Source: Eledone cirrhosa
Lineage: Eukaryota
Length of the DNA stretch: 64,000 nucleotides
Direction of reading: 5' to 3'
NCBI GenBank assembly: GCA_964016885.1
Contig: OZ024743.1
Span: 264,802,001 to 264,866,000, forward strand
Within the stretch, counting starts at the first letter, position 1; each line of letters starts with the position of its first letter. Shown here one piece after another: positions 1 to 60,197 of this stretch. The notes beneath the pieces are model-generated. The model worked only from the letters and a program-made list of their open reading frames with translations, was not told the origin of the DNA and searched no databases. Made by a program: the position numbers and the translations under genes.

Positions 1-184
1 ATGGGCGAGGGGTGGAGGTAACCTCTCGGAGTTGCCAGTCTGACTCCGGTCTCTTCCCCTGCCCCCCACTGTCCCTGGACCTGCAAGTGAGGGATCGGCC
101 TCTACAGCCACCTTCGTGCCCACGGCAGACGGGAACAACAATAAAGAAGATGTCATCATCGTTTACGATGGACAACCAAGAAGA
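1..184 (+). mobile_element. 3' end of an RTE-clade LINE (C-terminal zinc-finger remnant and 3' tail)
   Basis: Manual translation gives ...CPWTCK*GIGLYSHLRAH, matching the C..C...SRIGL.SH.R.H end of RTE/BovB ORF2; followed by a short tail and (TA)n. Confidence 0.65.
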
Positions 185-403
185 TATATATATATATATA
201 TATATACATATGCCTGTGTAGTATGTGTATGTATATTTGTATATATGTGTATATATGTATACTAGCTTCCCATTGGTGTTACTAGATTCATGAAATGTAT
301 ATTTACCAACGTCTCTCCAAAGACGTGCGTTGCTGTCCCCCATTACAACCAACTATATATATATATATATGCTTTAATGTAGAAGACCTTCCACTGGGCT
401 AGA

Positions 404-782
404 GGACAAAATGAAGACATACAGACACACACATCCAAACTAACAAAACAAATTAGACAAACACAGATGGAACAAACAACCAACTAGTGACAAATAAATA
501 AACACATACATAAATAAAACACACACACACACGGATGTAAAGCATTCGCAATCTAAGCACACAACGCACAACACAAACAATCGTGTAGGACAGAACAAAG
601 GAGAGACATACAAAATAAAAAACCTAGTCCATGAGGAGTTCACATAATGTGTAACGAAAGAGCTTTCACAATATATAAACAACTTTCCGGTTATCTAACC
701 AACCGGAAGTTTATCATAAATTGAAGTGAAAACCAACAGGTGCGTGTGTTTTTATTGGCAACATGGTTTTCCAAAAGTATAA
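404..782 (+). mobile_element. PLE 3' terminal-repeat fragment (same family as 9722-10360 and 42640-43245)
   Basis: Reverse complement of 9722-10109; similar to 42650-43020, which adjoins a GIY-YIG C-terminal remnant. Confidence 0.7.
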
Positions 783-2012
783 CTATATATATATAAAGTT
801 GTAGTTCTTGTCTGTTTGTTTGTTTGTTCACGAAATCCTCCTATGGTTTTGGAGATAGACCCCATAACTATATATATTCTGAAACTACATTGCCCAGGGT
901 ACTTGGTTAAGAATATTTCATTTTAATCAAAAGGTTCCCCAGGGGCACAAACCTCCGCTGAAAATCTTTTCTCTTCGATTTATATAAGATGTAAACCATA
1001 TAACAAAATATGATACCGATTTACAAAATTTCAGCAAATTTCAATAATATTAAGACACCCTAATGGCGATTAAACTCCCTATAATGAATGTTTTGGCCAA
1101 TAAATGGAACAAGATGTGTTGTAACAAGATTGCATGAGAACTTGATTGAAGCAACCATTATATTCGGGGCTTAAAAAGGTTAAGCTCTTCTCATTCCGAG
1201 GATTCCACTTATACCAAGTGATAGCGAGTTGCCTTTTACATTTAAGAGGCAGCAGTTCCCATTGAGGCCATGCTTTGCCAAGGTCAAACTTTCAAAATTA
1301 TTGGTATAGATCTGACAAACACATGTTTCAGTCATGGCATGTTTTATGTGGCTGTGTCAAGGACTGGAACTTCGAAAATTCTCTATATTTTAGAAAATAA
1401 TTACAATAAATGTTTTTTACCATGAAGTTCTTCATTAGCACAAAGTATGAAATATATTTTCATGTATTTAGTATCTTAAAAAAATAAATAATTAAACTTT
1501 GAATTTCTAATTTTACATATAATATTTTACAAATAATATTTTACACAAAAAAGAAATGATCAAGTTTTGAATTGAAATTTAAAAAAAAATAATTTGCAAG
1601 AAACAAAATAAGAATAAGATTTAATAATGTAATTTTGATTTGATATATTACAAACAATAATTGTTTCAACGTTTGGCACAAGGCATGACTGGTACTTTAT
1701 TTTATCGACCCCGTAAGGATGAAAGGCAAAGTTAACCTCGGTGGGATTTGAAATCAGAATGGTACGGGCCGTAACTCTATCCGTCAAAGCATGGCGTCCG
1801 AGCCTCTAACGATACTGCCAATCCACCGCCGATATATTACAAAAAGTAATGTTTTCCAATCTTTCATGCATTACATTTTACATTAAGTAATATTGAAATG
1901 CAGAGTTTTTCTCCATAAATTGTATCACTGATTTAATATCAATAAACATTTTCTTACAAATAAAAAAAAAGAAATGTGTGAAACGCAGCAAGGCGCGGGT
2001 AATTCGGCTACT
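783..2012 (+). mobile_element. Internally deleted Helitron with PIF1-type helicase C-terminal remnant (~1140-1390)
   Basis: Translation LLIPRIPLIPSDSELPFTFKRQQFPLRPCFA../QGQTFKIIGIDLTNTCFSHGMFYVAVSR resembles the RepHel helicase C-terminus; 5' ctatatatatataaag start; 3' GC-rich hairpin-like gcaaggcgcgggt...gctact. Confidence 0.8.
1657..1830 (-). mobile_element. tRNA-derived SINE (major family), nested in the Helitron
   Basis: A/B-box-like head (tggcagtatcg..., gttcaaatccc-like) and conserved core gcctttcatccttacggggtcgataaaataaagtaccag. Confidence 0.85.
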
Positions 2013-2013
2013 G

Positions 2014-2091
<78 letters not shown>

Positions 2092-2785
2092 TATACACAC
2101 ACAGAGGTATACACAGTAAGTTGTTGTGTCTATTCTGCATGAACAACTCGATGTAATCCATATGTTGAAAATGTTGCAGTTTAAGATAAATCTCGGAAAA
2201 CAGTAAAACATTAAAAGGAAAACAGAGTCATGATATAAGTTAATACAATGACATAAAAAATCAAGTCATTAGAGATATACTTCACTGCTTTACGATCGTT
2301 TCTAGATCATGATAATACATTGTAGCTATACTCCGTTATTGATCTATGTAAGGAAAGTTACAAAATATCAGATAAAGAGAATATTTCCCTACATGCATAT
2401 CACCAGCTGTTTTCAAAAGCAATAATAATTTTATTCAATAATAATGTCATTCAGAATTAGTAGTATGTTAATATCATGGAGGTAGTTGAAGAAGTAACGA
2501 TTAAAATTGTTTTTTTCATATGGTGTTAAGATGAAAATTACACTTTAGTTGAGGTCATGACACATTGAAAGGATTGGTTGAATGGTGTTAATAGTAGAAT
2601 TGGCATAAAAATCTATTAGAAGGAAAGGGATTGTCAAACTGATAGTTGAATGTATCTTGTATAGTGAAGTTACAAAGAATGTCAAAATAAATGGTGATTA
2701 GTGTTGTATTGAGTTTTTAGGTGAATATAAATTAAGGTTATGGTTAGGAAAGATAGTATATTAAAAGATGAAAATTATAATAAGA

Positions 2786-2969
2786 TAATTGTTTCTACTT
2801 TAGGCACAAGGCCAGAAATTACCCAGTGCATTACTAGTACTTTATTTTATCGACCCCGTAAGGATGAAAGGCAAAGTCAAACTCGGCGGGATTTGAACTC
2901 AGATCGTAAAGGGACATAACTATGGTGGAAAGCATCGCGTCCGATCCTCTACCGATACTGCCAATCCAC
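2786..2969 (-). mobile_element. tRNA-derived SINE (major family)
   Basis: Same head, core and tail as the other copies. Confidence 0.85.
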
Positions 2970-3360
2970 AATAAAATACAGTTATGCGATAATATACAAC
3001 TTAACCAACTAATAGAGTTCAGTGTGGTAAATTGCTCTTAGTATAATACAGCATATGATACGCTCTAAAATAATATCCCGTATGTTTATGCATAAATAAT
3101 CAAACTCAGATAAATACATGTTGGCATAGTTAAAACAGATAAATTTCATAGATTACAAAGTGCATATATCCATACTATATATAGAGAGTGGTACAGTTAT
3201 ATTGATATCCAACCAAAAATATACATACGCACAAATAGATGCAAACCTAAATACACATTTACATATATGCACATAATCATATACACATATATCCATACAT
3301 ATCTATATCCACACATAGAAACCTATACCCACATATATACATATATATATATACACACAT

Positions 3361-3413
<53 letters not shown>

Positions 3414-3593
3414 CAGACATACACATATATATATATGTGTGTGTGTATATACACTCCTCATACAAATACACACACTCATATATAAACACTCATACACCTA
3501 TACTCACGTATACACACACACAAACACACACATATATATATATACACACATACATACACACACATACATATACACATACATATATACACATAC

Positions 3594-3634
<41 letters not shown>

Positions 3635-3740
3635 ACAAGGTAAAAGGCAACAAGGAAAAGGCAACAAGGTACACAGCCACCCGTAATTGCAAGAGTAAAT
3701 ATATATCTATGTATGCTATGGAAATATATTTATGTGTGTG

Positions 3741-3773
<33 letters not shown>

Positions 3774-3778
<5 letters not shown>

Positions 3779-3889
3779 AGTAAGTAAGACCCCGACGGCT
3801 GAGCTCAAGCCGTTTCGACGGCTAATTGTGTACAGAATTAGCCGTCGAAACGGCTTGAGCTCAGCCGTCGGGGTCTTACTTACTCCTAT
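3774..3889. repeat. 116-bp near-perfect palindrome (54-bp arms) at the start of a short repeat also present at ~17850-17975
   Basis: ataggagtaagtaagaccccgacggctgagctcaagccgtttcgacggctaatt-gtgtacag-exact reverse complement. Confidence 0.95.
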
Positions 3890-3965
3890 TACCCACTCTA
3901 CTACCCTAAGTATTGAGTACTTTGGTGCGTAATGGTCCACCTGGTTCCTTACTACTTTTCCCTCG

Positions 3966-4020
<55 letters not shown>

Positions 4021-4071
4021 ATGGAATACTGCTAAAACAATTTCTATACCTTTCATATATATATATATATC

Positions 4072-4812
4072 AAGTAAGTATGTTTTGAAACAGTGAGCGA
4101 GTTTGAATTTAGAAAATATACAGCTTTCACCGTATTTTTGACTAAAGGAATTTTAGCTTGATAACGGGGTTTGGAACCGTCAGATAAATGGAAAAAGATG
4201 AGTATTGACGTACATAGGAGTCGAACCCACATCTGTGGTTATCGCGACCACTGTGCTACTATTACACCCATATATTTCCATTCAAAATAGAAACTACATT
4301 CTTAGCGAGTTTAAATGGCAAGTAAGTATGTTTTGAAACAGTGAGCGAGTTTGAAATTAGAAAATATATAGCTTTCACCGTATTTTTGACTAAAGAAATT
4401 TTAGCTTGATAACGGTGTTTAGAACCCTCAGATAAATGGTAAAAGATGAGTATTGACGTACATGAGAGTCGAACCCACATCTGTGGTTATCGCCCCGTTA
4501 TCAAGCTAACATTTCTTTAGTCAAAAATACGGTGAATGCTATATATTTTCTAATTTCAAACTCGCTCACTGTTTCAAAACATACTTACTTGCCATTTAAA
4601 CTCGCTAAGAATGTAGTTTCTAATTTGGATGGAAAGAGATGGGTGATGTGTTGGTGTAATGGTAGCACAGTGGTCGCGATAACCACAGATGTGAGTTCGA
4701 TTACAATGTACGTCAATACTCATCTTTTTCCATTTATCTGAGGGTTCTAAACCCCGTTATCAAGCTAAAATTCCTTTAGTCAAAAATACGGTGAAAGCTA
4801 TATATTTTCTAA
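4072..4812. repeat. ~247-bp unit containing a tRNA-like segment; ~1.7 tandem copies followed by ~1.3 inverted copies
   Basis: Units start at 4072 and ~4320; inversion point ~4493; tRNA-like tggtgtaatggtagcac...gttcga(c/t)t A/B boxes. Confidence 0.8.
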
Positions 4813-4829
4813 TTATATATATATATATT

Positions 4830-6237
4830 TATATTTATATACACACACATAAATATATTTCCATAGCATACATAAATATATATTCACTCTTGCAATTACG
4901 GGTGATTGTGTACCTTGTTGCCTTTAGTCATTAACATATAAACCTAAGGAAGCTAAAACATTAAAAGGTAAAAAATAAGCATGAATGCATGTAATTAGGG
5001 GAAAGGTGTACTCATAAATGTTACTCTATATAGAATTATAGTGAGTTGCTATTTAGAATATTTAATTAGGTTTATAGTATTTAAATGTTCTTCGTATACT
5101 GTGATTACAAACTATGATCAGTTCCTGCCTTTTATTTAATAAATGGTACTTAGATTTAGTAATTTCCAAGATCTCCCCTGAACATAATCTCCATTCCCTA
5201 CTGTTCCCAAGATATGGAGTTCTTTGTAGAAGAAGGTGTTCCGCGATAACTTGAAATCTATTTTTTTCTTTTTAGAATTATTTACCGCTTCAGATAAAGA
5301 TGTGGTGATAGCTAGTTTAGTATTGTTGAAACTACTAGAGTGTGCGTAAAATACTTTCTTAAATGTGTTTGATGTAGATCCTATATATGTTTTGTTGGAG
5401 TCTGTAGTAGACACAGTGCATTTATATATTACATTATTAATCAAACATTTGCCATTTAAGTGGCAAATGCTTCTATTTCTGCAAATACAGCCATACGTAA
5501 GATGGTTGTTGGGGGTGCCCATACTATATGATTAATCCTGGAGCTATTCCTATTGTAATTAATGATAGCAGGAGAATGAAGGTTGCTTTTTGGGTGGTTT
5601 GGTGCTAGCGTTGTATTGTGATTTTGTGTTCTGTTGTTTTTGTGTTGGTGATTTGGGTATTTGTGTTTTCTAGGTTTTCTAGGTTGTATTATTTGCCTTT
5701 TTAAAAGGTGCAGTCCTATTTAAATTATGTTGTGTTGGTGTAGTCATATTATTTTTAATTTTATAAATGTTGTAGTTGCTTATTTTATGCTGGAGATTGC
5801 TTGATGTAGAGTATGAGAATTTAACAGTATATTTGTTAAATATGAGCAGAGTCCATGGATCCCATCGTAATATCGAATAAGTTGTTATATGTGTTTCTCG
5901 TCCAGTATTCTTCTTGTAAGTTTAGTAAAGTTTTTCTAGGGTGAGTTACGATGTTGATTTCCTCAGTAGATAAATCCGATCTATTTCTGGTAAAGATCAG
6001 TGCTTTATTTAAAAGAATTGGAGAAATCGAAGAATACTAAGAATCGATGTCGAATTAAATGAATGAAGCTGAGTTTTTATTCCCAATGCTAGTGAAGCAT
6101 TCAATAACTTGGGAAGTGTTATCCCATATTGGAAGTGTTACACATTTTCTAATTTGCGGAATGATACGATCAATAATCTTTTTGCTGATATTACAGATAT
6201 CAGATTTTGATGGGCATATCAGTCTAATAGATGGGTT
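4830..6237 (-). mobile_element. Decayed Penelope-like element: RT N-terminal fragment, deletion, GIY-YIG endonuclease, 3' UTR
   Basis: ORF 6055-6381 has NPSIRLICPSKSDICNISKKIIDRI...WDNTSQVI...SFI (PLE RT); ORF 5136-5522 has NNVIYKCTV...TYIGSTSNTFKK..YAH (GIY-YIG). Confidence 0.85.
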
Positions 6238-6912
6238 CAACCATCTTACGTATGGCTGTAATTGCTGAAATAGAAGCATTTGCTCCTTAAATAGCAACAG
6301 TTTTTTTAATAATGTAATATATAAATGCACTGTGTCTACTACAGACTCCAACAAAACATATATAGGATCTACATCAAACACATTTAAGAAAAGATTTTAC
6401 GCACACGCTAGTAGTATCAACAATACTAAACTAGCTAACACCACATCTTTAGCTGAAGCGGTAAGTAATTATAAAAAGAAAAAAATAGATTTCAAGTTAT
6501 CGTGGAACACCATTCTACAAAGAACTCCATATCTTGGGAACAGGAGGGAATGCAGATTATGATCAGGGCAGATCTTGGAAATTAATAAATCTAAGGACGA
6601 TTTATTAAATAAAATGCAGGAACTGATCATAGTTTGTAATCACCGTATACGAAGAACATTTAAATACTATAAACCTAATTAAATACTATAAACCTAATTA
6701 AATATTTTAAATAGCAACTCACTATAATTCTATATAGAGTAACATTTATTAGTACCCCCTTTCCCCTAATTATATGCATTCATGCTTATTTTTAACCTTT
6801 CAATGTTTTAGCTTCCTTAGGTTTATGCGTTAATGACAAAAGGCAACAAGGTACACAACCACCCGTAATTGCATGAGTAAATATATATCTATGTATGATA
6901 TAGAAATATATT

Positions 6913-6920
<8 letters not shown>
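6238..6920 (+). mobile_element. Inverted partial copy of the same PLE (GIY-YIG and 3' UTR)
   Basis: ORF 6332-6562 TYIGSTSNTFKKRFYAH; reverse complement of 4830-5508. Confidence 0.85.
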
Positions 6921-6981
<61 letters not shown>

Positions 6982-7646
6982 GTATGTCTGTATATATATA
7001 TGTGTGTGTTTGTGTGCGTGTATATGTGAGTGTAGGTGTACGAGTGTCTATATATGAGTGTGTGTACATGTATGAGGAGTGTACATACACACACACATAT
7101 ATATATATATATATATGTGTGTATATATATATATATATATGTATAAGTATATATATATATATATATGTGTGTGTATGTATATGTGTGTATATATATATAT
7201 ATATGTATAAGTATATATATATATATATATGTGTGTGTGTATGTATATGTGTGTATATATATATATATATGTGTGGGTATAGCTGTGTATGTGGGGATAT
7301 AGATATGTATGGATATGTGTGTATATGATTATGTGCATATGTGTAAATGTGTATTTAGGTTTGCATCTATTTGTGCGTATGTATATTATTGGTTGGATAT
7401 CAATATAACTGTACCTCTCTATATATATAGTGTGGATATATGCACTTTGTAATCTATGAAATTTATGTGTTTTAACTATTGCAACACGTATTTATCTGAG
7501 TTTGATTATTTATGCATAAACATACTTGATAGTAGTTTATCAATGTATTTATTACTTGATAGTATCTTATCATATGCTGTATTATACTAAGTGCAATTTA
7601 CCACACCGTACTATATCGTGTTAGTTAAGTTGTATATTATCGCATT

Positions 7647-7823
7647 TGGCAGTATCGGTAGAGGGTCGGACGCCATGCTTTGAGCATAGAGTTACTACCC
7701 TTGCCATTCTGAGTTCAAATCCCGCCAAGGTTAACTTTGCCTTCCATCCTTACTGGGTCGATAAAATAAAGTACCAGTAATACACTGGTAATTGCTGGCC
7801 TTGTGCCAAAAGTAGCAACAATA
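7647..7823 (+). mobile_element. tRNA-derived SINE (mirror of 2786-2969)
   Basis: Family head, core and tail. Confidence 0.85.
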
Positions 7824-8524
7824 ATCTTTTTATAATTTTCATCTTTTAATATACTATCTTTCCTAGCCATAACCTTAATTTATATTCACCTAAAAACTCA
7901 ATACAACACTAATCACCATTTATTTTGTCATTCTTTGTAACTTCACTATACCAGATACATTCAACTATCAGTTTGACAATCCCTTTCCTCCTAATAGATT
8001 TTCATGCCAATTCTACTATTAACACCATTCAACCAATCCTTTCAATGTGTCATGACCTCAACTAAAGTGTAATTTTCATCTTAACACCATATGAAAAAAA
8101 CAATTTTAATCGTTACTTCTTCAACTACCTCCATGATATTAACATACTACTAATTCTGAATTACATTATTATTGAATAAAATTATTATTGCTTTTGAAAA
8201 CAGCTGGTGATATGCATGTAGGTAAATATTCTCTTCATCTGATATTTTGTAACTGTCCTTACATAGATCAATAACGGAGTATATCTACAATGTATTATCA
8301 TCAACTAGAAACGATCGTAAAGCAGTGAAGTATATCTCTAATGACTTGATTTTTTATTTCATTGTTTTAACTTATATCATGATCTCTTTTCCTTTTAATG
8401 TTTTATTGTTTTCCGAGATATATCTTAACCTACAACATTTTCAACATATGGATTGCATCGAATTCTTCATGCAGAATAGACACCACAACTTACTGTGGAT
8501 ACTTCTGTGTATATATATATATAT

Positions 8525-9720
8525 TTCTTTTTTTTTATTTGTAAGAAAATGATTATTGATTTCAAATCAGTGTTACAATTTATGGAGAAAAAACTCTGCA
8601 TTTCAATATTACTTAATGTAAAATGTAATGCATGAAAGATTGGAAAACATTATTTTTCGTAATATATCGGCGGTGGATTGGCAGTATCGGTAGAGTGTCG
8701 GACGCTATGCTTTGACGGATAGAGTTACGGCCCTTGCCATTCTGAGTTCAAATCCCGCCGAGGTTAACTTTGCCTTTCATCCTTACGGGGTCGATAAAAT
8801 AAATTACCAGTAATTCACTGGGATAATTGCTGGCCTTGTGCCAAAAGTTGAAACAATTATTGTTTGTAATATATCAAATCAAAATTACATTATTAAATCT
8901 TATTCTTATTTTGTTTCTTGTATATTATTTTTTTTTAAATATCAATTCAAAACTTGATCATTTCTTTTTTATGTAAAATATTATTTTCAAATTAGAAATT
9001 CAAAGTTTAATTATTTATTTTTTAACATAATAAATATATGAAAATATATTTCATACTTTGTCCTAATGAAGAACTTCAGGGTAAACAACATTTCTTGTAA
9101 TTATTTTCTAAATTATAGAGATTTTTCGAAGTTCCAGTCCTTGACACAGCCACATAAAACAAGCCATGACTGAAACATATGTTTGTCAGATCTATACCAA
9201 TAGTTTTGAAAGTTTGACCTTGGCAAAGCATGGCCTCGCTGAGAACTGCAGCCTCTTAAATGTAAAAGGCAACTCGCTATCACTTGGTATAAGTGGAATC
9301 CTTGGAATGAGAAGAGCTTAACCTTTGTAAGCCCCGAATATAATGGTTGCTTCAATCAAGTTCTCATGCAATCTTGTTACAACACATCTTGTTACATTTA
9401 TTGGCCAAAACTTTCACTATAAGGAGTTTAATCGCCATTAGGGTGTCTTAATATTATTGAAATTTGCTGAAATTTTGTAAATCGGCATCATATTTTGTTA
9501 TATGGTTTACATCTTATATAAATCGAAGAGAAAAGATTTTCAGCGGAGGTTTGTGCCCCTGGGGAACCTTTTGATTAAAATGAAATATTATTAACCAAGT
9601 ACCCTGGGCAATGTAGTTTCAGAATATATATAGTTATGGGGTCTATCTCCAAAACCATAGGAGGAGTTCGTGAACAAACAAACAAACATACAGGAACTAC
9701 AAATTTATTTATATATATAT
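8525..9720 (-). mobile_element. Mirror copy of the Helitron remnant (helicase fragment ~9110-9360); the 3' hairpin end is missing
   Basis: Reverse complement of ~783-1975. Confidence 0.8.
8669..8858 (+). mobile_element. tRNA-derived SINE, full length
   Basis: ggcggtggattggcagtatcggtagag...gagttcaaatcccgccgagg...ggccttgtgccaaaagttgaaacaatt. Confidence 0.9.
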
Positions 9721-9721
9721 G

Positions 9722-10360
9722 TATACTTTGGGAGAACCATGTTGCAAATAAAAACACACGCACCTGTTGGTTTTCACTTCAACTTATGATAAACTTCCGG
9801 TTGGTTCGATAACCGGAAGGTTGTTTATATATTGTGAAAGCTTTTTCGTTACACATTATGTGACCTCCTCAGGGACTAGGTTTTTATTTTGTATGTCTCT
9901 CCTTTGTTCTGTCCTACACGATTGTTTGTGTTGTGTGTTGTGTTCTTAGTTTGCGCATGCGTTACATCCGTGTGTGTGTGTGTGTGTGTGTTTTATTTAT
10001 GTATGTGTTTATTTATTCGTCACTAGTTGGTTGTTTGTTCTATCTGTGTGTGTCTAATTTGTTTTGTTAGTTTTGTTTTTGTGTGTGTCTGTATGTCTTC
10101 ATTTTGTCCCTTATTACTAGCTGTGATATTGCCATTCCACTCATGATTTCTGTTTAACTTTGATAGGAGTTCGTTTATAAGTGAACATTAGTAAGAAATC
10201 CAGGATGGGAAAACTCATCAGTACTCCATCAACATGCCAAAATAGAACATAGTGGCACATTAAAGAACATAGAGATAAAAATTATATCCACACACAGAAA
10301 AGAAGCAATGCTCAGGCAAATGACAGAGGCAACGGATATAAATGAACTCCAACCAAAATT
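9722..10360 (-). mobile_element. PLE 3' end with inverted 5' segment (GIY-YIG C-terminus on + strand, ~10190-10360)
   Basis: Plus-strand translation SVLHQHAKIEHSGTLKNIEIKII...AMLRQMTEATDINELQPK; minus part matches 42650-43100; HHR-like motif at ~9833-9876 (-). Confidence 0.75.
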
Positions 10361-12339
10361 TATTTCTTTATTTGTATTTATATCCGTTAATTTTGTTTTT
10401 GTTTATAACGGTTTTTTTCCTATAATGCTCAAGATAGGAGCGTCCGTTGAATTCTAGGCCCGTGTTTGACATTCTATATGCTTGTTTGTGTTTTTGATGG
10501 TCGTCCACAGATTTGATGTAATTTTTGTTGTGTTAACAATGATGTGAAGATCAGGCGGTTTGGAGTCTGGCCTTGAGGTGCCATCCCAGATCAGGATTCA
10601 GCTGCCTGGGGAATATTTGTGAACAGGATTAAGGAATAAAAATACACGTACCTGTTGGATTTCACTACAATTTATTAGAAATTTCCAGTTGTTTGGTTGG
10701 TTGGTTCAATAACCGGATGATTGTTTATATATTGTCAAAGCTTAATTTGCACCTCTCCTTTCTTCTGTCGTAAACCATCAAGTGCTTTGACATTTTATAA
10801 ACAACCATCCGGTTATTGAACCAACCAAGCGGAAATTTATAATAAATTGAAATGAAAATCAACAGATGCGTATGAGTTTGTTGGCAGCATGACTCCCAAA
10901 TTATTACAATATGTATATATACATGTGTGTGTGCGTGCGTCTGTGTGTGTATGTGTGTGCCTCTGTGTCTGTGCGCACTTCAAATTAAAGGATAATTGAG
11001 AAGCTTAATCATCTTACATATTATTTGTTATGATACATTCACATAGTGTATAATTGCTATACATTCTTATTCGGTTGAATTTCTTAAACTGTGACAAGTA
11101 TTTCGCATCTCCTTCAAGCGCATAAGACGTTCAGTTCTATTTGTATTTGCCCAGACAGTTGACATATTTTTTTAAACCCATGCAGTGTCGATTTTAACGA
11201 CAGATATAAATTGTTTTGTATAATCTATGGGACATATCTGAAGACGATTCTTCAGACAATTAGTTTTTCGTTTTCTGTAGTTCTACCAAAATCGATAGTT
11301 GGTAAAGCTAAATCAGTGGGACGAAACGAAATCAATGTTATGGAGAAACGGCGGATAATTGTTTACCTAACCTCGTAGGTATGTTTAGACACACACACGC
11401 ACACACATATATATATATTCAAATATTCGAGGTCCGTGGGTCATGCACTGACTGGACAGGACGGTAAATAGGGCAGTCACAAGGCGTAAGTAACTATACT
11501 GTTTCGAAATATAAAGATTGCCGCGTAAGCGTGGAAAATATAGTTCAAGACAACAAACATAGGTACAATAGATACATTAGTTTCACTCCTCTTTCCAATA
11601 TAGAGCGTGAAAATAATAAGACTTTGTGTACCTCTGTTTGTTGTCTCCTTGAATTATACATATATACATATACATGTATATATATATATACACACATATT
11701 CAATGGAAAATTTCTGTCCATATTTTTAAAATAAAATATATATGTTTACGTTCTATCGATATAACCTGATTTGTAAAATACCGTGTATGCGTATATCAAT
11801 ATATAGAAGCATATGCGTACAGCATTATTCGTATTGTTCTGTATATGTGTGCTTCCTGTTTCATCAACCTCACCGTGTGGTTTTAAACCAATGTTCTCAC
11901 CAATGTTTGGTTATTTTATATAGAAAAAGAATTTTTTCAATATTCTGACAGCAATAGAAGAGTGTCCGTTTTCTCCTCAAATTTATTGAAGCCACTTGGA
12001 TGGCATAAGAACTGGAGAAAGGCGAAATTTATAAGACACACTCAATTGATAGCTGATAGTGAAAATATAAAGACATCTTATTATTTATAGCAGATGTTTT
12101 CAATCGATAGTTTTGAAGGAGGAGCTGCGAAGGTTAAAGTAGACAAACTTTTTACCGCCTTTAAAACACTTAAATAGATATTTACAGAGTTATATCTCGG
12201 GAAAATATCGATACGAATGATAGTTGCCTATAGTTTAAAAGCTTTTTTTAAACATATATCAAGAGGTCAAATGTGACTTAGACGCATTCATATATCATTT
12301 CGTAATTATGTATGTATGTGTGCCTGTATGTATGCATGT

Positions 12340-13578: not shown

Positions 13579-14095
13579 GTATGTGCAGTGGCGGACTGGC
13601 CAGGTTGCCAGGTCGCACAATGGCAAGTGGGCCCAGGGTGGCCACGGTAGCATTGCAGTTGCCCACAGTAGCATTGGAGGGCTCACTGTATTATTTTAGG
13701 GGCCGATGCTTTGCTTTCAAAAAATATCTTAAATCTAAGAGTAAGAAAAAAATTGTTTAAAAATAAATTAAATGATTAAGCAAAGCATTTGGTCAACCAA
13801 TTCCGCACGGAATTAATAGAAACTAAAATATATGATAGAGCAAATAGCTGGAATCAGTAGTTGTACATTCTACTAAATCTAAGGCTTTGTGTATTCATTC
13901 ATGCATGCAAACATACATATATTGACACACACAAGCATATGTCTATATGAAATTTCGTTTCATTCTTTTCCATTTATCGTTTTCGGTGCGCCCGGCCGAC
14001 TAACTCACTCGATATGCAAATTAGGCTGCTCAGCCGTTAATATGAATAAGCAAAGTATATACTTTCAGACGTTCAATCATGTGGCAAGGAAGTAT

Positions 14096-14138
14096 ACGAT
14101 GCTGACGATGGGTAATAAGCTTGAAACTAGTACATCGT
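14096..14138 (+). ncRNA. Type I hammerhead ribozyme motif (family A)
   Basis: acgatg-CTGACGA-tgggtaataagctt-GAAA-ctag-TA-catcgt: 6-bp stem I, intact core, palindromic stem III; stem II weakened. Confidence 0.8.
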
Positions 14139-14283
14139 TCCTGTGTCAGTGTTGAACAAAAAGGTGAAGATGGTTGCCTGAACACTGTACGACATATGTA
14201 TATATGAAATTTCGTTTCATTCTTTTCCATTTACAAGCATATGTATACACTTTCAGAGGTTCAATCAACTGGCAAGAAGGTAT

Positions 14284-14326
14284 ACGGTGCTGACGATAGC
14301 TAATAAGCTTGAAACTAGTACATCGT
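14284..14326 (+). ncRNA. Type I hammerhead ribozyme motif (family A)
   Basis: acggtg-CTGACGA-t-agc-taataa-gct-t-GAAA-ctag-TA-catcgt. Confidence 0.85.
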
Positions 14327-14676
14327 TCCGTTGTCAGTGTTGAACAAAAGGGCAACGATGGTTGCTAAACACTGTACGGCTTAATTCAAGATGTTTGTTT
14401 ACAAACAAACCGAGCATTATAATAAATGTTTGATAAATCCATACGTACATATACATATGTGTGCATGTATGTATATATATACATACTACTGTACGCCTGT
14501 ATACATATATGTATGTACGTATACATACTTATATTTAAGTAACAGCCGTACTAACAGTGAGAAATGAAATTTCTTTTCACTTTTTCGATCTATATATATA
14601 TATAAAGAAAAAGAGATGGAATCGAAAATGCAACTGGAGTCTTATTTTTTTTTTAAATATATATATTTATTTGGTT

Positions 14677-14714
14677 CCTTTACCGGTTTCGCAGTTCTTC
14701 TGCTTTTCAAAAGG
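14677..14714 (-). ncRNA. Type I hammerhead motif, U3-A8 core variant (family B)
   Basis: Reverse complement of 14776-14813. Confidence 0.75.
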
Positions 14715-14775
14715 TGAGTTGAGATGGAGGGTCTGTGGTTTTTCTGAAAAACCACAGACCCTACATCTCAACTCA

Positions 14776-14813
14776 CCTTTTGAAAAGCAGAAGAACTGCG
14801 AAACCGGTAAAGG
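14776..14813 (+). ncRNA. Type I hammerhead motif, U3-A8 core variant (family B)
   Basis: cctt-TTGAAAA-gcag-aagaa-ctgc-GAAA-ccgg-TA-aagg. Confidence 0.8.
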
Positions 14814-14945
14814 AACCAAATAAATATATATATTTTAAAAAAAAATAAGACTCCAGTTGCATTTTCGATTCCATCTCTTTTTTTTTATACTTTCACTCGT
14901 GTAGGACACCTCGGTTATTTTTCATTTTGTTAAAAAAAACCTCAC

Positions 14946-15661: not shown

Positions 15662-16249
15662 GGCAATCATTGTAAGTTTGTATTTTACTGACACGCAAAT
15701 ATATATATATATATTTGAATAAGGTAAGCCCAAATCATAGCATATTCAAACATCACAGAGTGAAATAGAGAGAGAGAGGTGGAGAGAAATGAGGTGCAAC
15801 AGAAATGAAGAATGAATGTATGTATAGTATATTTGGCAATATACCGTATGTTTAATTAAAAACATTTAGTACATTCATGTATACATCGCTATTTCAGAGC
15901 ACCAATCCTAATACCTAATTTTTGCTGGACCGGCAATCGCTCTGTATAGTCAGCTCCTGATTATTACTGAAATTCTATAAGAATCCAGCTTCTATAATTT
16001 TTGGCGAAGGCAGGGGCGTACGTGGCTCTGATGAACGCCAAGCAGCATGAAACCAACTGTCAGCTGGTCTACCTTCTTTCACCGAAAAGAAGTAAGTGCC
16101 AGATTCACTACTTTAAAATTGATAGCGTATGGTCTTCTAAATGTTTATTATTACAAATACGGTATATTGCCAAATATACTATACATATATTCAATGTAAT
16201 GATTATTTAAAAAGACTATACATATATATATATATATATATATATAAAC

Positions 16250-16942
16250 AGATTTCGCTTCAAGCATAGCGTTATACAAAATGTATAGACATTTCGTATT
16301 TCTAAAGAAACACGGTTTTAGGAAGCCATAGCTATGCAAACACCAGGGATAACGCCCTATGGTGGTGTCGAGCAGACACAAGGGGGACAACCGTCGATGC
16401 ACTTCACGCTTGACTGGGATTCTTCGGGACGGTCCCTCCCACTGCTTGCAACTGGTGGACTTAAAAACAGTCGAGAAAATATAGTTTCTCGTCTGTGTAA
16501 TTGAGATGATTAAACTCATTTACATATGAAGCTGTATAAGTTGGCTCAAGTTATAATAGAAGAGAATAGGATTACGCTTCAAGCATAACGTTATACAAAC
16601 ATGTAAAGAAATTTCGTATTTCTAAACAAACACGGCATGTTTACAGATACACATTTAGAAGGCTGTAGCTATGCAAAAAAACACCTGGGCTAACGCCCTC
16701 TAGTGGTGTCCAGCAGCAGCAAGGGGGACAATCATCGATGCTCGACTGTTTTCAAGTCCAGCAGTCGCAAGTGTGGGACGGATCGTCCTGATGATGGTTG
16801 TCCCCCTTGCTTCTGCTGGACACCACCAGAGGGTGATAGTAACCGGGTTTTGGGGGGATGGCTACGGCTTTCTAAATGTTTCTTTAGATATACGAAATGC
16901 TGTATACATATCTGTATAGGGCTGTGCCTGAAGCGAAATTCT
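16250..16942. repeat. Two direct copies plus one inverted copy of a ~200-bp repeat with a degenerate hammerhead (16390-16433, - strand)
   Basis: Copies at ~16250-16475, ~16570-16740 and inverted ~16741-16942; minus strand accgtc-CCGAAGA-...-GAAG-tgca-TC-gacggt; the third copy shows atcgtc-CTGATGA. Confidence 0.7.
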
Positions 16943-17206
16943 AATTATATATATCTATATAATTTCAATCATAGTAAATTTGAATCTGACATGCAAAAAC
17001 ATATATATATGAAGAAAGTAACCCCGAATCATAGTAGATTCAAATATCACAGAGAGAAAGAGGGGGTAAATGAGGTGCAACACAAATGGATTACAGGTTA
17101 AAATATAATCTAGATAGATGAGCAAAAAAAAACGAGGATGCATTTCATAGAACACCCAAATGAATTAGAAGTCAACGTTAAGTAGGAGCAATAACATTAA
17201 GAATGA

Positions 17207-17849: not shown

Positions 17850-17975
17850 AATTGTGGTAAGGAACCAGATGGACCATAACGCACCAGAGTACTCAATACT
17901 TAGGGTAGTAGAGTGGGAAATAGGAAAAAGTATGACCCCGACGGCAGAGCTAAAGCCGTTTCGACGGCTATTTCT
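17850..17975 (-). repeat. Unfolded copy of the repeat that forms the 3774 palindrome
   Basis: Reverse complement matches 3836-3955. Confidence 0.8.
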
Positions 17976-18665
17976 GGACTAAATAGGAATGTTTAGCCTG
18001 GTGAATAATAGCCAAACTTGTCAAGGGCGTACTTCCTTATATGAAAGATTGTAGTTGTCTAGGGGATTGGTTAAAATTTGTTGTAAACACAAATAAGTCT
18101 ATCATGGCATTTGGTGGGAGGTAGGGTGGCTGAACTTGCCTGTAGAACAATAGGGGAGTGAGTGGAGCGGTCAAGCGTTGAAATGATATGTATACAGCAG
18201 ATTCTAAGGATAGTGTATGAAATGGAGGGGGGAGGTTATAGAATAGGTAATTCGAATGAGAGTAGGAGACAATAAAAGATAATAGAAATAAATAAAAAAA
18301 TATATAAAATTAGATAGTGAGAAATGAATAAAAAAAATCACAATGCTATCTTACAATTACAGGTTAATAAGTTGAGAGTAGAAATTGAGTAGTAACAAAA
18401 CTGATACAAAATTAAAGGGTTCTAACACATCTTCTATAAGTAATTAGTAAAACGTTTTCGGCCAATTCTATCTTAAAATTACAGGGGTGGGGACTGATGC
18501 TAAAGAGACCCGATGGGATGCATCGGGGTAGGCGAAAAGGGAAAAGCAGACGAGGAAGAAAATAGGGGGTGGAAGGAAGTGATAGGATGAGACAGGGGGA
18601 AGAAGAAGACAAAGAGGAAAAGAAAAGAGATACATCTATAGTAGTAGAAATAACATTAAGAAAGA

Positions 18666-19011: not shown

Positions 19012-19074
19012 GCTCTCCTGGCAAAAGTTTTATTGCACTGTTTTGTTTCCACTTATGTATTTTTTGAAAATGTT

Positions 19075-20235
<1,161 letters not shown>

Positions 20236-20241
20236 TAACTA

Positions 20242-20408
20242 TTTCTACTTTAGACACAAGGCCAGCAATTACCCAGTGCCTTACTGGTACTTTATTTTAT
20301 CGACCCTGTAAGGATGAAAGGCAAAGTCAACCTCGGAGAGTCGTAAAGGGACGTAACTATGCTGGAAAGCATGGTTTCTGACCCTCTACCGATACTGCCA
20401 ATCCACCG
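20242..20408 (-). mobile_element. tRNA-derived SINE
   Basis: Family core; internal deletion at the B box. Confidence 0.8.
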
Positions 20409-20413: not shown

Positions 20414-20800
<387 letters not shown>

Positions 20801-24927: not shown

Positions 24928-26924
24928 ATGGCTAATTCACCTCTGCACCAAACAGCTGAAAGCCTTCTTCACAAATTAACACCTCACACCGACACCACCA
25001 TTGTAAATGTTACTACGTTTGCCAACTCTAAAAAAAATATAAGCACTAGCAATATTTTAAATTTGTCTCAGGCAGACATTCATTTCCCGCCATTACCAAT
25101 GACTGCAGGTGTTAAAGCCTCCACCGCCACCACCACCGCGACAACCACCACCCCCACCACCACTGCGACAACAGAAACAAAAGAAGAAAAAAATAAATTA
25201 ACTCGTGATGTCGAAATGAAATCAAGCAAAATGGACTCTTCCCCACCAAAGACGACTGACGTCACCACAACCACAACTGAAACTAAAATTAATATTAACA
25301 CAAATAACGATAGCAACAACAACAACAATGACATTATAAAATCGACCCTCAGTTTCGCCAGATTAGCAAAACAGTTCGAAGCATTTACGGTAACTCAGGA
25401 GGGTTTAGAAAATGCCAAACAAATGGTAAAGAAAGATGGGTACAGGGTCAGCCCCCCCCCCCACACACACACCTAATAAAATGGAGCATCGGCGCCTATG
25501 CACCGTGTCGTATCGAACAATAAATGTAAAATCGCGCCGATTTGAACGGGCATCCGAGTCCCAAATCCAAAAAGCTTTGGGACATGTGTGGGCAAGAAAA
25601 ACCCACATCAGACGTGGGCAGAAGTATGGAACCGTGGACGTGTTCTTTGAAACACCAGAGGAGGCTAGAGAACATTCCATGGCCCCATTAAGAAGTGACG
25701 ACTTCTCACTCGTCCCAAGCTATTGTGGCCAGAGACTCGTAATGATCAGGGTGACCCACGTTCCACCGGCCATCGAAATTCCCTTGCTAATAGCGGCCGT
25801 CCTCGCCGGCATCGAAGCCAACACAAAAATAATAGCAATAGCAAAAGAAAAGCAAGAGAACTGGTCCGGATCTGGGATGGAGCTCCTGATCCAAGCGGAC
25901 CAAAAAAGCATTGAGGAAATCCCAGAGGTAATAGACCTCACTGACGGCAGCCACCTCACGGTAATTGTCGAGGGCAGAAGACCTAGGTGTGTCGTTTGTG
26001 GTGAAGGAACCCACCTAAGGGATTTCTGCCCTCAGGCTAAAAGGTTGAGGCCACCTCTCCTACCCACCCCAGTGACACAACCATCAACACCACCAGTAGC
26101 AGAGATGGCAGCAACAACTGTAGCAGCAACAACAGAAGCAACTATAACAGCAACAACCCCAGCAACAGTAGCAAAACCAACACCACCACCACCAGCAAAA
26201 CCAACACCACCACCACCCAACGCTTCAGAACTAGCACCAGCGCCTACACCATCCACCACGCCACAACCAAAACTAACGCCTGTGGAGGATTTTCCACTCC
26301 CCGGCCTATCACAACTGGAGACAGATTGTGACGACGAGGAGTGGGAAACGATATCCGGAAAAAAAAAGAAACCAAAAAAGAAAAAAATATCTTCCTTCCC
26401 CCTCCAAAAACAAAATACAGAGGGAAACAAGTAAACTAAGAAACAAAAAAGTTAGGACAGATATACCACCATCCAGACCAGCATCACCAACCCCATCAAC
26501 CCAAACACCAACACCATCACCATCATTAACCCCAACACCACCATCACCTACACCACAAAAGTCACCAAAATGCGAAACAGAAACAAACCCACAACAAACG
26601 CAAACAAAACAAAACAACCAAAACGATACACACTACACAGCATTAAATTTGAACAACAAGCAATTATTACACTACATCCAACACAACACCAGCATCACAG
26701 AAAAAGACTACACAACAACCCCAAAATTCACACCACCTCCACACATACAAATCACTCGCATCACACAGAAAACGTACATGACACTAAAACAAAAATTCCC
26801 CAAAGACATCGGAGACATCCGACAAGCACTCTCCAGGAGGATTTATAAGGACATCCTTCCTGAGGAGGCCACAAGCAGTGAAAAGGATGGAAAAACCGTC
26901 CTTCCCCTACGAGAAGTAAGGTAA
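24928..26924 (+). CDS. LINE ORF1 (gag-like, CX2CX4HX4C zinc knuckle, Pro/Thr-rich), split by two homopolymer frameshifts
   Basis: Overlapping ORFs 24928-25476, 25436-26434 and 26328-26924 overlap at a C-run (~25452-25462) and A-runs (~26359-26388); motif CVVCGEGTHLRDFC. Confidence 0.75.
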
Positions 26925-26953
26925 GTGGTCTTTCCCATCTTTTCCTTTTCAAC

Positions 26954-29900: not shown

Positions 29901-30372
29901 AGCTTTGCCAGTTCTGGATAAACTCTACAGGCACGGAGGTGCCGTCAGCCGGGCATGTCCGAGATGCGCGCAGGGCGACGAAACCGTCCTGCACGCACTC
30001 GTCCAGTGTCCGAGCATTGCTGACTTGTGGGTTTATGTCGAACACCTGCTGTCACGTGTAGGTCCTATCCGGCTATCAGCTGAGTCCATCGTGAGGATTG
30101 CCCCGCCCCCTTCCTTTATCCTGGAAGGGCAGGCAGTTTTTATTTGTCTGGTGGCCATGGCGAAAGAGATAGTATGGTGGACACGTTTGAAAGGGCTGAA
30201 GACGAGCACTTACCTCTTCGGTGATGCCCTGATTAACTTTTTCAAATTTCATTTGAAAAGGAAAATCAGGGTAGAGAGGGAAGTGCTCTCTTCCCAGCAT
30301 TTTGTTGAAAGATGGGTGAGAGAAGCAAGTATGGCCCGAATGAATGGGCCTTCTCTGAGTATGTGTCTGTAA
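26954..30372 (+). CDS. LINE ORF2: apurinic-like endonuclease, reverse transcriptase, C-terminal Zn motif; one frameshift at ~27170
   Basis: SINARGL, ISET, LVGDWN, YLDRVF, YTDH (APE); KSPGLDGL, FRPITLLN, LDQSKAFDRV, RQGCPLS, YADD (RT); CPRC...ETVLHALVQC. Confidence 0.93.
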
Positions 30373-32612: not shown

Positions 32613-32616
32613 ATTA

Positions 32617-32647
<31 letters not shown>

Positions 32648-32662
32648 CATTATTATTATTAT

Positions 32663-33828
32663 TCCTTGAATCTCAGTCATTGATGTTGGTTAACTGGTAA
32701 GTCCGTTGGAATGAATATCAAGTCACTACCTGCAGCCTCAGATATTCACGACGTATCGGAGGGTTCTTGCTGTTCCCAGCAAGCATGCCTTTTAAAGCGT
32801 TCCAAACAGCGTGAGGGGGCCGATTTTCTTTAACCATCCCTGGAAACTTTTGGAGATAGTCCCCAGTGCGCCTATGACAATCGGGATCACTTTGACTTCA
32901 TGGCAGTTCCAAATCCTTTTTACCTCCCACTTTAAGTCCTGGTATCGGTTAATTTTCTCCCTCTCCTTCTCTTGCACTCTCGTGTCGAATGGGCAGGCCA
33001 CATCCACAATCAGACACGCTCTTTTTTCTTTGTCCACAACCACCAGGTCAGGTCTATTGTAGTCCAGTTTCTTGTCCGTCTGTATCCTAAAATCCCACAG
33101 CACCTTCACCTGATCGTTCTCCATCACCGCCTCTGGCCTATGCTCATACCATTTCTCAGAATGTGGTAAATTGTTTACTTTGCACAGGTGCCAGTGGATC
33201 ACCCTGCCCATCACATCATGTCTCCAGCCCTTATAGTGGGTCTGGGCTAGGCGTTTACACTCGGACACAATGTGAGCCACAGTCTCCTCTCTCTCTCCAC
33301 ATATCCTGCACAGTGGGCTAGCCTCCTCCTTGTAAATATGGTGTTTCACACATTCCTTTTTGAGGGCCTGCTCCTGCGCAACCATTAACATTCCTTCTGT
33401 AGCCTTTTTGAGGTCTCCTCTTCTCAACCAGTTCCATGTCTGTGGATCTCTAAATTCAGTTTTCTCAAAGAAGGTACTATGAAGGGATTTTCTCTGAAGG
33501 CTGCTCTTTCTCCTTGTTGTTATTTACTCCTTGGACATCCCCTGGCCTACTGTCCCCTCCTTCAGTACAGTTCTGAGCATTGGCTCCTTACTATCAGTCA
33601 CGTATTTGTATAGGTTGTTTTTCTCCATCTGAACACAGTCCTCTATGCTGATAAGACCTCTTCCACCCTCAGATCTCCTCAGGTATAGTCTATCGACATC
33701 ACTCCTCTTGTGGAACATGTTGTAGATAGTCAATAGCTTCCTTGTCTTCCTATCCATTTCTTTTTGTTCAGCAACATTCCATCTCAGAATTTCCGCACTG
33801 TACCTAATAATAGACACAGCTCGGGAAT
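32663..33828 (-). mobile_element. Second 5'-truncated R4/Dong-like element (different family)
   Basis: DRLYLRRSEGGRGL, CRICGEREETVAHIVSEC, WRHD, NRPDLVV...VDVACPFD...IVIGALG; (TAA)n on both sides. Confidence 0.9.
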
Positions 33829-42613: not shown

Positions 42614-42639
42614 GGGGGGGGGGTATATGTGTGTGTATA

Positions 42640-58982: not shown

Positions 58983-60197
<1,215 letters not shown>

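Follow-up and report, generated by a model that had tools for sequence, protein, structure and literature searches.

A real inverted duplication around a Penelope-like element insertion in Eledone cirrhosa, possibly produced by fold-back repair

A 64-kb stretch of Eledone cirrhosa DNA (contig OZ024743.1; hereafter the window) carries, between positions 404 and 10109, an inverted duplication that is real, yet not a single clean 9.7-kb palindrome. Its best reading, with a probability of about 0.42, is that an ordinary inverted insertion of a Penelope-like element (PLE) was cut again in the adjacent (TA)n tract, that 3.2 kb of flanking DNA were then copied by fold-back DNA synthesis and that the new end was rejoined. 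The structure contains no host genes and is filled with transposons; it is a mutational scar left by a single event, with no evident function.

Alignment within the window identifies the left outer arm (404 to about 3628) as an inverted copy of the right outer arm (about 6919 to 10109). Substitutions affect 138 of 2,627 unmasked columns (5.25 +/- 0.44%). In local alignment the outer arms, taken with 4.5-kb flanks, score 4109, and 150 random controls from the rest of the window, taken with 1.5-kb flanks, reach no more than 127. Between them lie two inner arms, L (4814 to 5508) and R (6238 to 6918), which differ at 41 of 639 sites (6.4%). An earlier note on this DNA had described a 9.7-kb palindrome centred on an inverted PLE; the inverted copying and the PLE inverted repeat inside it stand, but continuity does not, since 1,185 bp between the left outer and inner arms (3629 to 4813), missed at that time, occur on the left only, and a shared centre does not either, since the outer arms are centred at about 5,260 and the PLE repeat at about 5,870, an offset of about 600 bp. 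Directly outside the inner arms, no mirrored unique sequence was found within 1.5 kb (score 24, background median 25). The left breakpoint leaves 403 nt of window beyond it, so that the arm may extend further, and a single locus is concerned.

The same note's mirrored SINEs, Helitron and other element's 3' end were all recovered, the SINEs being two in number. The Helitron fragment (790 to 2012, plus strand, mirrored at about 8524-9722 on the minus strand; approximate ends) matches residues 1365-1423 of the Helraiser transposase (7lcc, E=6.8e-11) and carries SINE A (about 1655-1833, mirrored at about 8665-8860), from whose left copy 18 nt retained by family copies are gone. About 37 nt at 1975-2012, presumably the Helitron 3' terminus, are present on the left arm and missing from the right, and the alignment contains no other insertion-sized private segment in the outer arms. 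SINE B (2785 to 2975, plus strand, mirrored at 7645-7825) holds a patch in which the arms differ at 12 of 28 positions, the left copy differing from a SINE at 34.4-34.6 kb at only 2 of 26; these differing subfamily patches probably stem from ectopic gene conversion, and outer-arm divergence without SINE B is 4.7%.

Such differences bear on whether the assembly itself could have created the structure, by joining two haplotypes of one flank head-to-head via the PLE inverted repeat or by incorporating a folded-back read. This is unlikely, with a chance that can be considered small, because the differences are symmetric and poor in indels and because the divergence lies far above octopod heterozygosity: about 5% between the arms against published values of 0.08-1.22% (PMC9795677; 10.1101/2023.05.16.540928). 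The arms are separated by 179 substitutions and 8 one-base indels, and derived changes fall on both (10:7 in PLE2, described below, with 3 ambiguous; 18:16 in the SINEs), which bears out the previous argument that scattered differences speak against a read fold-back. Changes between weak and strong bases are balanced (57:45, P=0.28), the 18 nt lost on the left, the 37 nt lacking on the right and the subfamily-specific patch swap in one SINE point in the same direction, and the join at 404 falls in unique sequence. On the other side, inverted PLE inserts are a known difficulty for assemblies (PMC8557442), and the left breakpoint is close to the window edge. The transition to transversion ratio of the arms (61:118) is also low, as random errors would give. 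It lies below that of dispersed repeat pairs (196:125, P=1e-8); the shortfall against local duplicates (29:32, P=0.07), based on partly non-independent data, is not significant.

The element inside the duplication, PLE1, is, as judged from its sequence, a defective Hydra-type PLE. L (minus strand) comprises a CxCX5C linker, the GIY-YIG endonuclease and the 3' UTR and ends in (TA)n; the spacer S (5509 to 6237, 729 bp, minus strand) holds the front part of the reverse transcriptase (RT) of a 5'-truncated PLE1, followed by linker, and continues into L; R (plus strand) is an inverted 5'-truncated copy with GIY-YIG and 3' UTR. Endonuclease and 3' UTR therefore point outward on both sides and RT sequence is confined to the spacer, as had been noted before. 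The spacer RT shows 43% identity to residues 171-303 of the full-length relative P0003 (E=2e-25) and then jumps to residue 554, so that some 250 codons are deleted internally near 5843 and the YxDD motif and thumb are missing; 1,508 relatives are found at E<=0.001. For the endonuclease, the right copy matches Pfam PF01541 (E=3.3e-5), the left inner-arm translation has no Pfam match, and translations inspected by eye present a GIY-YIG core without CCHH and with one Cys. The CxCX5C linker, intact in L and interrupted by one stop in R, occurs in 12 of the 19 relatives of at least 650 aa; a CxxC near the C-terminus (17/19) is split between the two decayed copies, and CxH (14/19) is present in both. 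The RWK / DKT region is missing from the truncated copy (relatives: DK[TS] in 17/19, R[WY][KR] in 11/19). No exact hammerhead core was found in L, R or the third tail T (see below), copies that are decayed by about 3% each and contain three one-mismatch matches, two in the coding region and one antisense; the Rfam matches listed, 150 out of 164, include no hammerhead family. The order of RT match, linker and C-terminal GIY-YIG, the CxCX5C motif, the lack of CCHH, the C-terminal CxxC and CxH and the (TA)n target agree with the description of the Hydra clade (PMC8557442). PLE1 is unlike that clade in being truncated and internally deleted, with no hammerhead core found and the N-terminal motifs missing, and its placement is by motifs.

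An inverted 5'-truncated copy at the element's 5' end is the canonical form of PLE insertion (PMC8557442, PMC3846280), and 4814-6918 has the same arrangement, R beginning at 6238, where the 5' end of S adjoins it. An internally deleted PLE derivative, to which this insert is similar, has also been described in Adineta. Canonical inserts may carry a tail of 30-40 bp at one end only; L and R share one unique 3' terminus and show no length difference in unique sequence, only a low-complexity difference of about 12 nt. The flanks of a canonical insert are unrelated or form a short target duplication. In the present case the immediate flanks are unrelated, but a mirror of 3.2 kb of the right flank stands 1.2 kb further to the left, and there is a third tail.

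A second element, PLE2, reveals which arm served as template. The left arm truncates it at 404, leaving its 3' end (404 to 782, plus strand, 76% identity to a sister copy at 42636-43027), while the right copy (9726-10182, minus strand) spans the arm boundary and has its own 5'-inverted piece (10194-10360, plus strand). Past 10109 it runs on with 58 of 73 positions identical to the sister copy (local score 72), and no such match continues left of 404 (local score 13). Because PLE2 crosses the right boundary yet is cut at 404, the right arm is the template and the left arm the inferred new copy. PLE2 is probably Penelope-like, given hammerhead-like cores in a motif scan (one mismatch at 631 in the left copy, exact at 9872-9844 in the right) and an apparent resemblance of its C-terminus to that of PLEs; a Pfam search of its translation returned no match. 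The spacer runs on into the left arm, on the opposite side from the template, and this combination disfavours both a simple cDNA fold-back and 3' transduction.

The junctions suggest a connection between the duplication and PLE1. The window holds 66 merged (TA)n tracts with n of at least 6, and the inner edges of both outer arms are such tracts, 3.3 kb apart, the right arm starting with the target tract. All three PLE1 3' ends run into (TA)n, both edge tracts belong to the three that bear a PLE1 tail, and PLE1 sequence occurs in the window only at these three ends; a link to PLE1 is plausible because both inner edges abut its tail in (TA)n and it lies nowhere else in the window. The third tail, T, of about 100 nt (3629 to 3768, tail 3657-3768, plus strand; stuttered 5' junction with a 14-nt word repeated), borders the left outer arm precisely on its inner side, its own 3' end facing L. 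It differs from the right tail at 2 of 60 positions and from the left at 4 of 65, and T, L and R have diverged to a similar extent (private substitutions 1, 4 and 3, respectively, the R tail being shorter). T is a candidate scar of the cut that began the fold-back; it could also be an independent later insertion, which would count against the re-cutting model. At the other junction, a (TA)n tract (353-372) and 31 nt (373-403) without another match in the window lie outside the left breakpoint and are a candidate for the other end of the cut target. The distance of 31 nt is suggestive only, as 4.1% of the positions outside tracts have such a tract within 35 nt on their left, the chance level for (TA)n near 404. 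Inside (TA)n, junction microhomology and target duplication are unreadable.

According to the preferred reading, a Hydra-type PLE would have inserted head-to-head in (TA)n as a longer 5'-truncated copy (S and L) plus a shorter inverted one (R), producing a 0.7-kb inverted repeat around a 0.73-kb spacer. The (TA)n beside L would then have been cut again, probably by the GIY-YIG endonuclease of PLE1's own family, and the L-side 3' end lengthened by about 100 nt of cDNA, the tail T, and left unligated. After resection the strand would fold back, aided by L-R pairing, its tip would prime anew in the (TA)n on the far side of R, from where DNA polymerase would copy 3.2 kb of flank before the new end and the opposite side of the break, where a (TA)n persists, were joined at 404. 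Later, more TA-seeking fragments would pile into the left tract and the arms drift about 5% apart. A purified PLE protein does cut and extend both strands of AT-rich DNA (PMC11167929), and in yeast, inverted repeats near a break yield fold-backs and inverted dimers (PMC6103520). The yeast case is alike in that an inverted repeat with a spacer of about 1 kb beside a break leads to palindromic duplication of the DNA beyond, and unlike in that here the repeat is supplied by a retrotransposon's insertion form and the product is a local duplication, not an inverted dimer; long spacers there favour inter-sister annealing over intra-strand fold-back, which counts against the model. With a right-arm template and a left-continuous spacer, the model needs no later flip. 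T favours it as well, abutting the new arm on the inside with its 3' end facing L, the strand that has to fold back. Further points for the model are the restriction of PLE1 to these three ends, the similar divergence of T, L and R, the (TA)n close to 404 and the make-up of the left-only block; the 31 nt at 373-403 and the low transition to transversion ratio of the arms speak against it. The re-cut, T as its mark and the repair pathway are what we infer, and so is the order of events, as the slightly higher divergence of the inner arms is not significant (6.4% versus 5.25%, P=0.25; versus 4.7% without SINE B, P=0.09).

That same lack of an age difference suits a single step at insertion, in which the flank-side end extended by PLE1 was itself duplicated and was broken or released at 404, the block 3629-4813 including T being inserted later. 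Either an unligated end was replicated and its sisters fused head-to-head, one resected by 729 nt, or the cDNA primed itself and ran into the flank. This explanation, closest to the idea of the earlier note, is improbable but has points in its favour: without the TA-flanked block a single palindrome is centred in the spacer, L and R finish at one unique 3' terminus, and replication and fusion of LINE-1 RT ends are described (10.1101/2024.12.14.628481; PMC12807874), leaving spacer orientation free. A minus-orientation 24-mer at 3580 that resembles the PLE1 tail with 1 mismatch would also suit it better than the two-step course, weakly, given four such sites in the window, one of them unrelated. 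Self-priming, however, predicts a spacer on the right, where the template is, instead of on the left as observed, and requires a later flip, whereas replication and fusion should give a whole-arm palindrome and require a second break only 3.2 kb away with rejoining to the original partner. Both routes also require a single tract to have received four more insertions afterwards, including one of the same rare family, although neither outer arm has another insertion-sized private segment. With the template right and the spacer left, the suggestion that PLE copying extended into the flank is supported as fold-back synthesis during DNA repair rather than as the element's own copying running on.

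It is rather unlikely that the PLE was a bystander, its tails present only since they target (TA)n, while two self-complementary tracts 3.3 kb apart allowed a template switch or a fold-back once the DNA had broken or a fork had stalled for unrelated reasons. The abundance of tracts, the (TA)n at both inner edges, the roughly 600-bp displacement of the outer arms from the PLE repeat and the absence of mirrored unique sequence directly outside the inner arms would all fit; however, both edge tracts are among the three of 66 with a PLE1 tail, no other tract pair in the window made mirrored kb-scale flanks, and T, L, R and the arms are of similar age. Very improbable is 3' transduction, also proposed previously, in which a read-through RNA of PLE1 plus 3.2 kb of flank would be reverse-transcribed into its own locus in opposite orientation, deleting the 5' part of the source. 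If the block is taken out, left arm, L and S do read through as a single strand, the spacer orientation agrees, and PLEs can capture host DNA between terminal repeats (PMC3846280). The copy nevertheless begins inside PLE2 antisense at 404, where neither poly(A) nor an element end is found, and a PLE RT examined in vitro starts at specific internal sites of its own repeat (PMC11167929). Re-insertion at the source and loss of its RT part would also be required; the copy is adjacent, and no RT-bearing source element lies in line with the right arm, whose PLE has no RT part in the same orientation.

Fold-back repair duplication is known for human LINE-1 and apparently new to the literature for the Penelope-like class. 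LINE-1 ends yield inverted duplications and foldbacks containing the retro-insert (10.1101/2024.12.14.628481; PMC7058536; for breakage-replication/fusion, PMC12807874), and the likeness comprises a retro-insert at the fold-back junction (here T and/or PLE1 at 4814-6918), breakpoints at the endonuclease target (here (TA)n) a few kb apart, and inverted duplication of neighbouring DNA with a kb-scale spacer. The LINE-1 cases arose in somatic cells or in experiments and depend on ORF2p, whereas the Eledone locus is an old, presumably germline copy involving a GIY-YIG PLE at (TA)n, where the spacer already contained a 0.7-kb inverted repeat and the duplication has a closed extent of 3.2 kb. Recurrent flank-mirroring at PLE ends would mean that PLE-cut ends stay unligated long enough for resection and fold-back. 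It is tentatively hypothesized, against the odds, that PLEs which enter (TA)n as inverted pairs and cut again next to their own insertions repeatedly give rise, in the germline of PLE-rich animals such as octopods, to kb-scale palindromes and inverted segmental duplications. These would then correspond, among PLEs, to the foldbacks of LINE-1, additional 3' tails at the edges of arms would be a searchable signature, and the second-strand and resolution step of PLE insertion, still undefined after priming (PMC8557442, PMC11167929), would gain a genomic test. Recurrence would provide a route to inverted duplications in genomes rich in PLEs and (TA)n tracts and, for assembly curation, would mark such palindromes as real. 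The importance of the locus is conditional on a genome-wide count, the present basis being one old, gene-free event and mirrored flanks in 1 of the 17 local inverted structures of the window.

Beyond T, the left-only block consists only of further TA-flanked repeat fragments. A short element (3774 to 3958, plus strand) folds back at its 5' end into a hairpin (centre at 3831/3832, a single mismatch in 49 pairs) and has a sister copy at 17854-17979 (12/126 differences), and it is followed by a short fragment (4018 to 4055, plus strand; sister copy at about 61710-61770). The last element (4071 to 4812) yields no tRNA call and is built from a 248-nt unit, arranged as a partial tandem and then an inverted partial tandem with a junction at 4493 and an internal divergence of 2-6%.

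The window is AT-rich animal DNA, dense in microsatellites, and its assignable long ORFs are transposon-derived; no host gene was found in 1-12000. Without masking, microsatellites swamp a BLAST of the window against itself, and period-2 tracts (7,102 of 64,000 bases) were masked before this search. Masked self-BLAST and global alignment resolve an inverted duplication running from 404 to 10109 with two separate arm pairs. Substitutions affect 138 of 2627 unmasked columns (5.25%) between the outer arms (404-3628 and 6919-10109), which also show seven one-base and six longer gaps; the inner arms (L, 4814-5508; R, 6238-6918) differ at 41 of 639 (6.4%), with three gaps. Between the arm pairs lies a 1,185-bp block (3629-4813) that is present on the left side only. 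An earlier note had described one continuous palindrome; its outer coordinates and arm contents hold, whereas the continuity is lost to the two arm pairs and the left-only block. Alignment of the outer arms (4.5-kb flanks) scored 4109, whereas none of 150 random controls with 1.5-kb flanks exceeded 127; chance is therefore excluded for these arms. Divergence is uneven along their length (P = 0.002), mainly around SINE B, one of the elements mirrored in both. The stretch 1975-2012 is read as a right-arm deletion of what we take, from the form of its terminus, to be a Helitron end, in preference to an insertion in the left arm.

The centre of the duplication is occupied by PLE1, a Penelope-like element (PLE) that is confined in the window to R, to L with the adjoining spacer (5509-6237), and to T, a third 3' tail inside the left-only block. 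On the minus strand, the spacer codes for the front portion of a PLE reverse transcriptase (RT), with 43% identity to residues 171-303 of P0003, a 769-aa relative, and 1508 relatives at E<=0.001. Past this stretch the frame resumes at the counterpart of residue 554, having lost ~250 codons including YxDD, and runs into L. The linker, GIY-YIG and 3' UTR are present in both inner arms, each of which terminates in (TA)n. Pfam recognized the GIY-YIG domain in R (E=3.3e-5) and gave no match on translations of the L endonuclease, the spacer RT, the C-terminus of PLE2 (a second element, probably a PLE) or the Helitron pieces, for which identification came from homolog and PDB searches. The homolog search returned no PLE1 protein of the same family, the best match reaching ~56% over part. 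PLE1 is classed only as Hydra-type, by its agreement with a description of that clade rather than by a tree: a CxCX5C linker, the lack of CCHH, a C-terminal CxxC plus CxH and a (TA)n target are common to both (PMC8557442). A motif scan of PLE1 found no exact hammerhead core, and the Rfam matches listed (150 of 164) were all microRNA-like or otherwise sub-threshold. The inner inverted repeat alone is unremarkable, because an ordinary PLE insertion combines a longer truncated copy with a second, shorter copy placed in inverted orientation at the 5' end of the longer one (PMC8557442, PMC3846280).

The left-only block is composed of four repeat fragments with (TA)n between them. These are T (3657-3768, plus strand), which has a stuttered 5' junction; a short element whose hairpin has 49-bp arms (its sister copy occupies 17854-17979); a fragment of 40 nt, with a sister at ~61710-61770; and a (TA)n-flanked element made of tandem and inverted copies of a 248-nt unit (4071-4812). 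The last, a partial tandem plus inversion, has a PLE-like arrangement and no other copy within the window. Since ARAGORN detected no tRNA in 1-12000, a tRNA origin for this element is unsupported. Internal divergence of the fragments (2-6%) overlaps that of the arms and thus gives no order of events.

Several properties of the arm differences bear on whether the structure is genuine. Derived changes in PLE2 number 10 on the left and 7 on the right (3 ambiguous), those in the two SINEs, relative to a consensus of eight other copies, 18 against 16, and weak/strong changes between the arms are unbiased (57:45, P=0.28). The differences comprise 179 substitutions and 8 one-base indels. Being symmetric and indel-poor, they bear out the earlier case against a simple read fold-back, which is rejected. 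SINE B (2785-2975 / 7645-7825) carries a subfamily patch (12 of 28 sites differ between the arms, but only 2 of 26 between the left copy and another SINE) that suggests ectopic gene conversion in vivo. A mis-join of haplotypes through the inverted repeat is highly unlikely in view of the derived changes on both arms, the predominance of substitutions over one-base indels, the SINE B patch, and an arm divergence (~5%) well above the published octopod heterozygosity of 0.08-1.22% (PMC9795677; 10.1101/2023.05.16.540928). What speaks for such an artefact is the transition/transversion ratio of the arms, 0.52 (61:118; 404-3330 / 7275-10109 and 4861-5508 / 6238-6897), with A-C/T-G as the largest class (68/179). 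Dispersed repeat pairs have a higher ratio, 1.57 (196:125 in 13 control pairs, P=1e-8), and local duplicates a marginally higher one (29:32, P=0.07), the latter comparison being partly non-independent. The low ratio of the arms may reflect how neutral DNA mutates in this genome.

The two outer boundaries are not equivalent. PLE2, whose sister copy occupies 42636-43243, extends across the right boundary, and 58 of the 73 sites in 10110-10182 are identical to that sister; to the left of 404 there is no such match (local score 13 vs 72 on the right). Because PLE2 crosses the right boundary only, it is the right arm that still adjoins its original neighbour, and the left arm has been cut short. 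Beyond the left breakpoint, 31 nt separate the arm from the end of a (TA)n tract; 4.1% of positions lie that near a tract. No source for these 31 nt (373-403) was found in the window by exact 11-mers and sensitive BLAST; likewise, nothing elsewhere in the window matches 1-180, and matches to 262-352 stay at chance level. With only 403 nt of the window to the left of breakpoint 404, the arm may continue beyond the window's edge. Just outside the right arm, a head-to-head pair of PLE2-family 3' ends occupies 10635-10904, and the PLE2 sister copy is adjoined at 43268-43828 by what is presumably a Tc1/mariner-like remnant with 89-bp terminal inverted repeats.

A DNA-level fold-back triggered by a PLE, taken over its two-step and one-step forms, has a probability of about two in three. 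The two-step form, to which we give tentatively somewhat less than an even chance, fits all of the geometry without an extra flip. An ordinary inverted insertion of PLE1 into (TA)n would be followed by a fresh cut in the (TA)n tract beside L; the orientation of T implies that its synthesis began on the 3' end at the L side, which belongs to the strand expected to fold back. Following resection, L would pair with R, and the tip would re-prime on (TA)n beyond R, from where 3.2 kb of flank would be copied before the end was joined to the other side of the break at 404. The slightly higher divergence of the inner arms agrees with this model in direction, yet falls short of significance (P=0.25, or P=0.09 with the 193 SINE B columns left out). 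A duplication of the PLE end in one step is doubtful: the spacer runs unbroken into the left inner arm, and simple self-priming of cDNA would require the spacer to have been flipped afterwards, because a folded-back single strand keeps its loop on the template arm. A switch from (TA)n to (TA)n with the PLE as bystander is decidedly unlikely. The earlier note had proposed that PLE copying ran on into the flank by 3' transduction or fold-back synthesis; fold-back at the PLE end, at the DNA level, is favoured, while 3' transduction is barely credible, as the junction at 404 shows neither poly(A) nor an element terminus and the copy lies adjacent to its source.

The individual activities required for PLE-triggered fold-back are documented in published work: a purified PLE protein can both cleave and extend the two strands of AT-rich sites (PMC11167929), and inverted repeats near a break lead to fold-backs or inverted dimers, with 1-kb spacers favouring inter-sister annealing (PMC6103520). 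Ends cut by LINE-1 likewise give rise to local inverted duplications and foldbacks with a retro-insert (10.1101/2024.12.14.628481, PMC7058536, PMC12807874). The process proposed for the PLE1 locus would resemble these, and two of their defining features are seen in it, a retro-insert at the fold-back junction and inner edges at the (TA)n target. Searches of largely open full texts found no account of PLE-linked mirroring of kb-scale flanks. Passages of 10.64898/2026.07.22.740005 and PMC12910113 hold no relevant precedent, and those of PMC5490193 treat palindromes without a PLE link. The PLE1 locus is real and well resolved, but represents a single old, gene-free event.

The list of local inverted structures in the window has 17 entries, several of them PLE-like in form or equipped with hammerhead-like cores, and kb-scale mirrored flanks occur at PLE1 only. 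The other 16 showed no flank mirroring above background, except for two in the left-only block that catch the T/L pair; this test used 1.5-kb flanks with hand-set edges, at which PLE1 itself is at background and 4.5 kb is needed. Whole-window BLAST revealed no other kb-scale inverted pair. Flank mirroring is thus an occasional outcome in this window, with one case. One repeat family (13947-14604 and 59067-60141), a possible non-autonomous PLE or retrozyme, is arranged in partial tandem and contains hammerhead-like cores at 14102 and 14290; in the copy at 59-60 kb, part of the sequence is inverted as well. A young TA-flanked element at 14601-14944 (sister at 20600-20797) has a 289-bp near-perfect 5' hairpin, whose inverted copy lacks the last ~55 nt, resembling PLE tail asymmetry. 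Short inverted-repeat elements at 15813-16193 and 42365-42503 contain hammerhead-like cores (16028 and 42438), and a perfect 44-nt palindrome forms the 5' end of the latter element. A frameshifted PLE-like element at 48038-49797 encodes RT and a C-terminal Cys-rich endonuclease-like region, its end being partially repeated in tandem (49729-49797). Older degenerate inverted-repeat structures with unmirrored flanks (19066-20245, 16256-16943, 58356-58847) are possibly MITE or foldback elements. RTE-like LINE coding fragments are presumably present on the minus strand at 30954-33523. Finally, a nearly intact LINE (24928-30372) carries ORF1-like frames and a 1150-aa endonuclease-RT frame, and the closest named relative of its ORF2 (region 420-820) is from Argonauta hians, with 73% identity.
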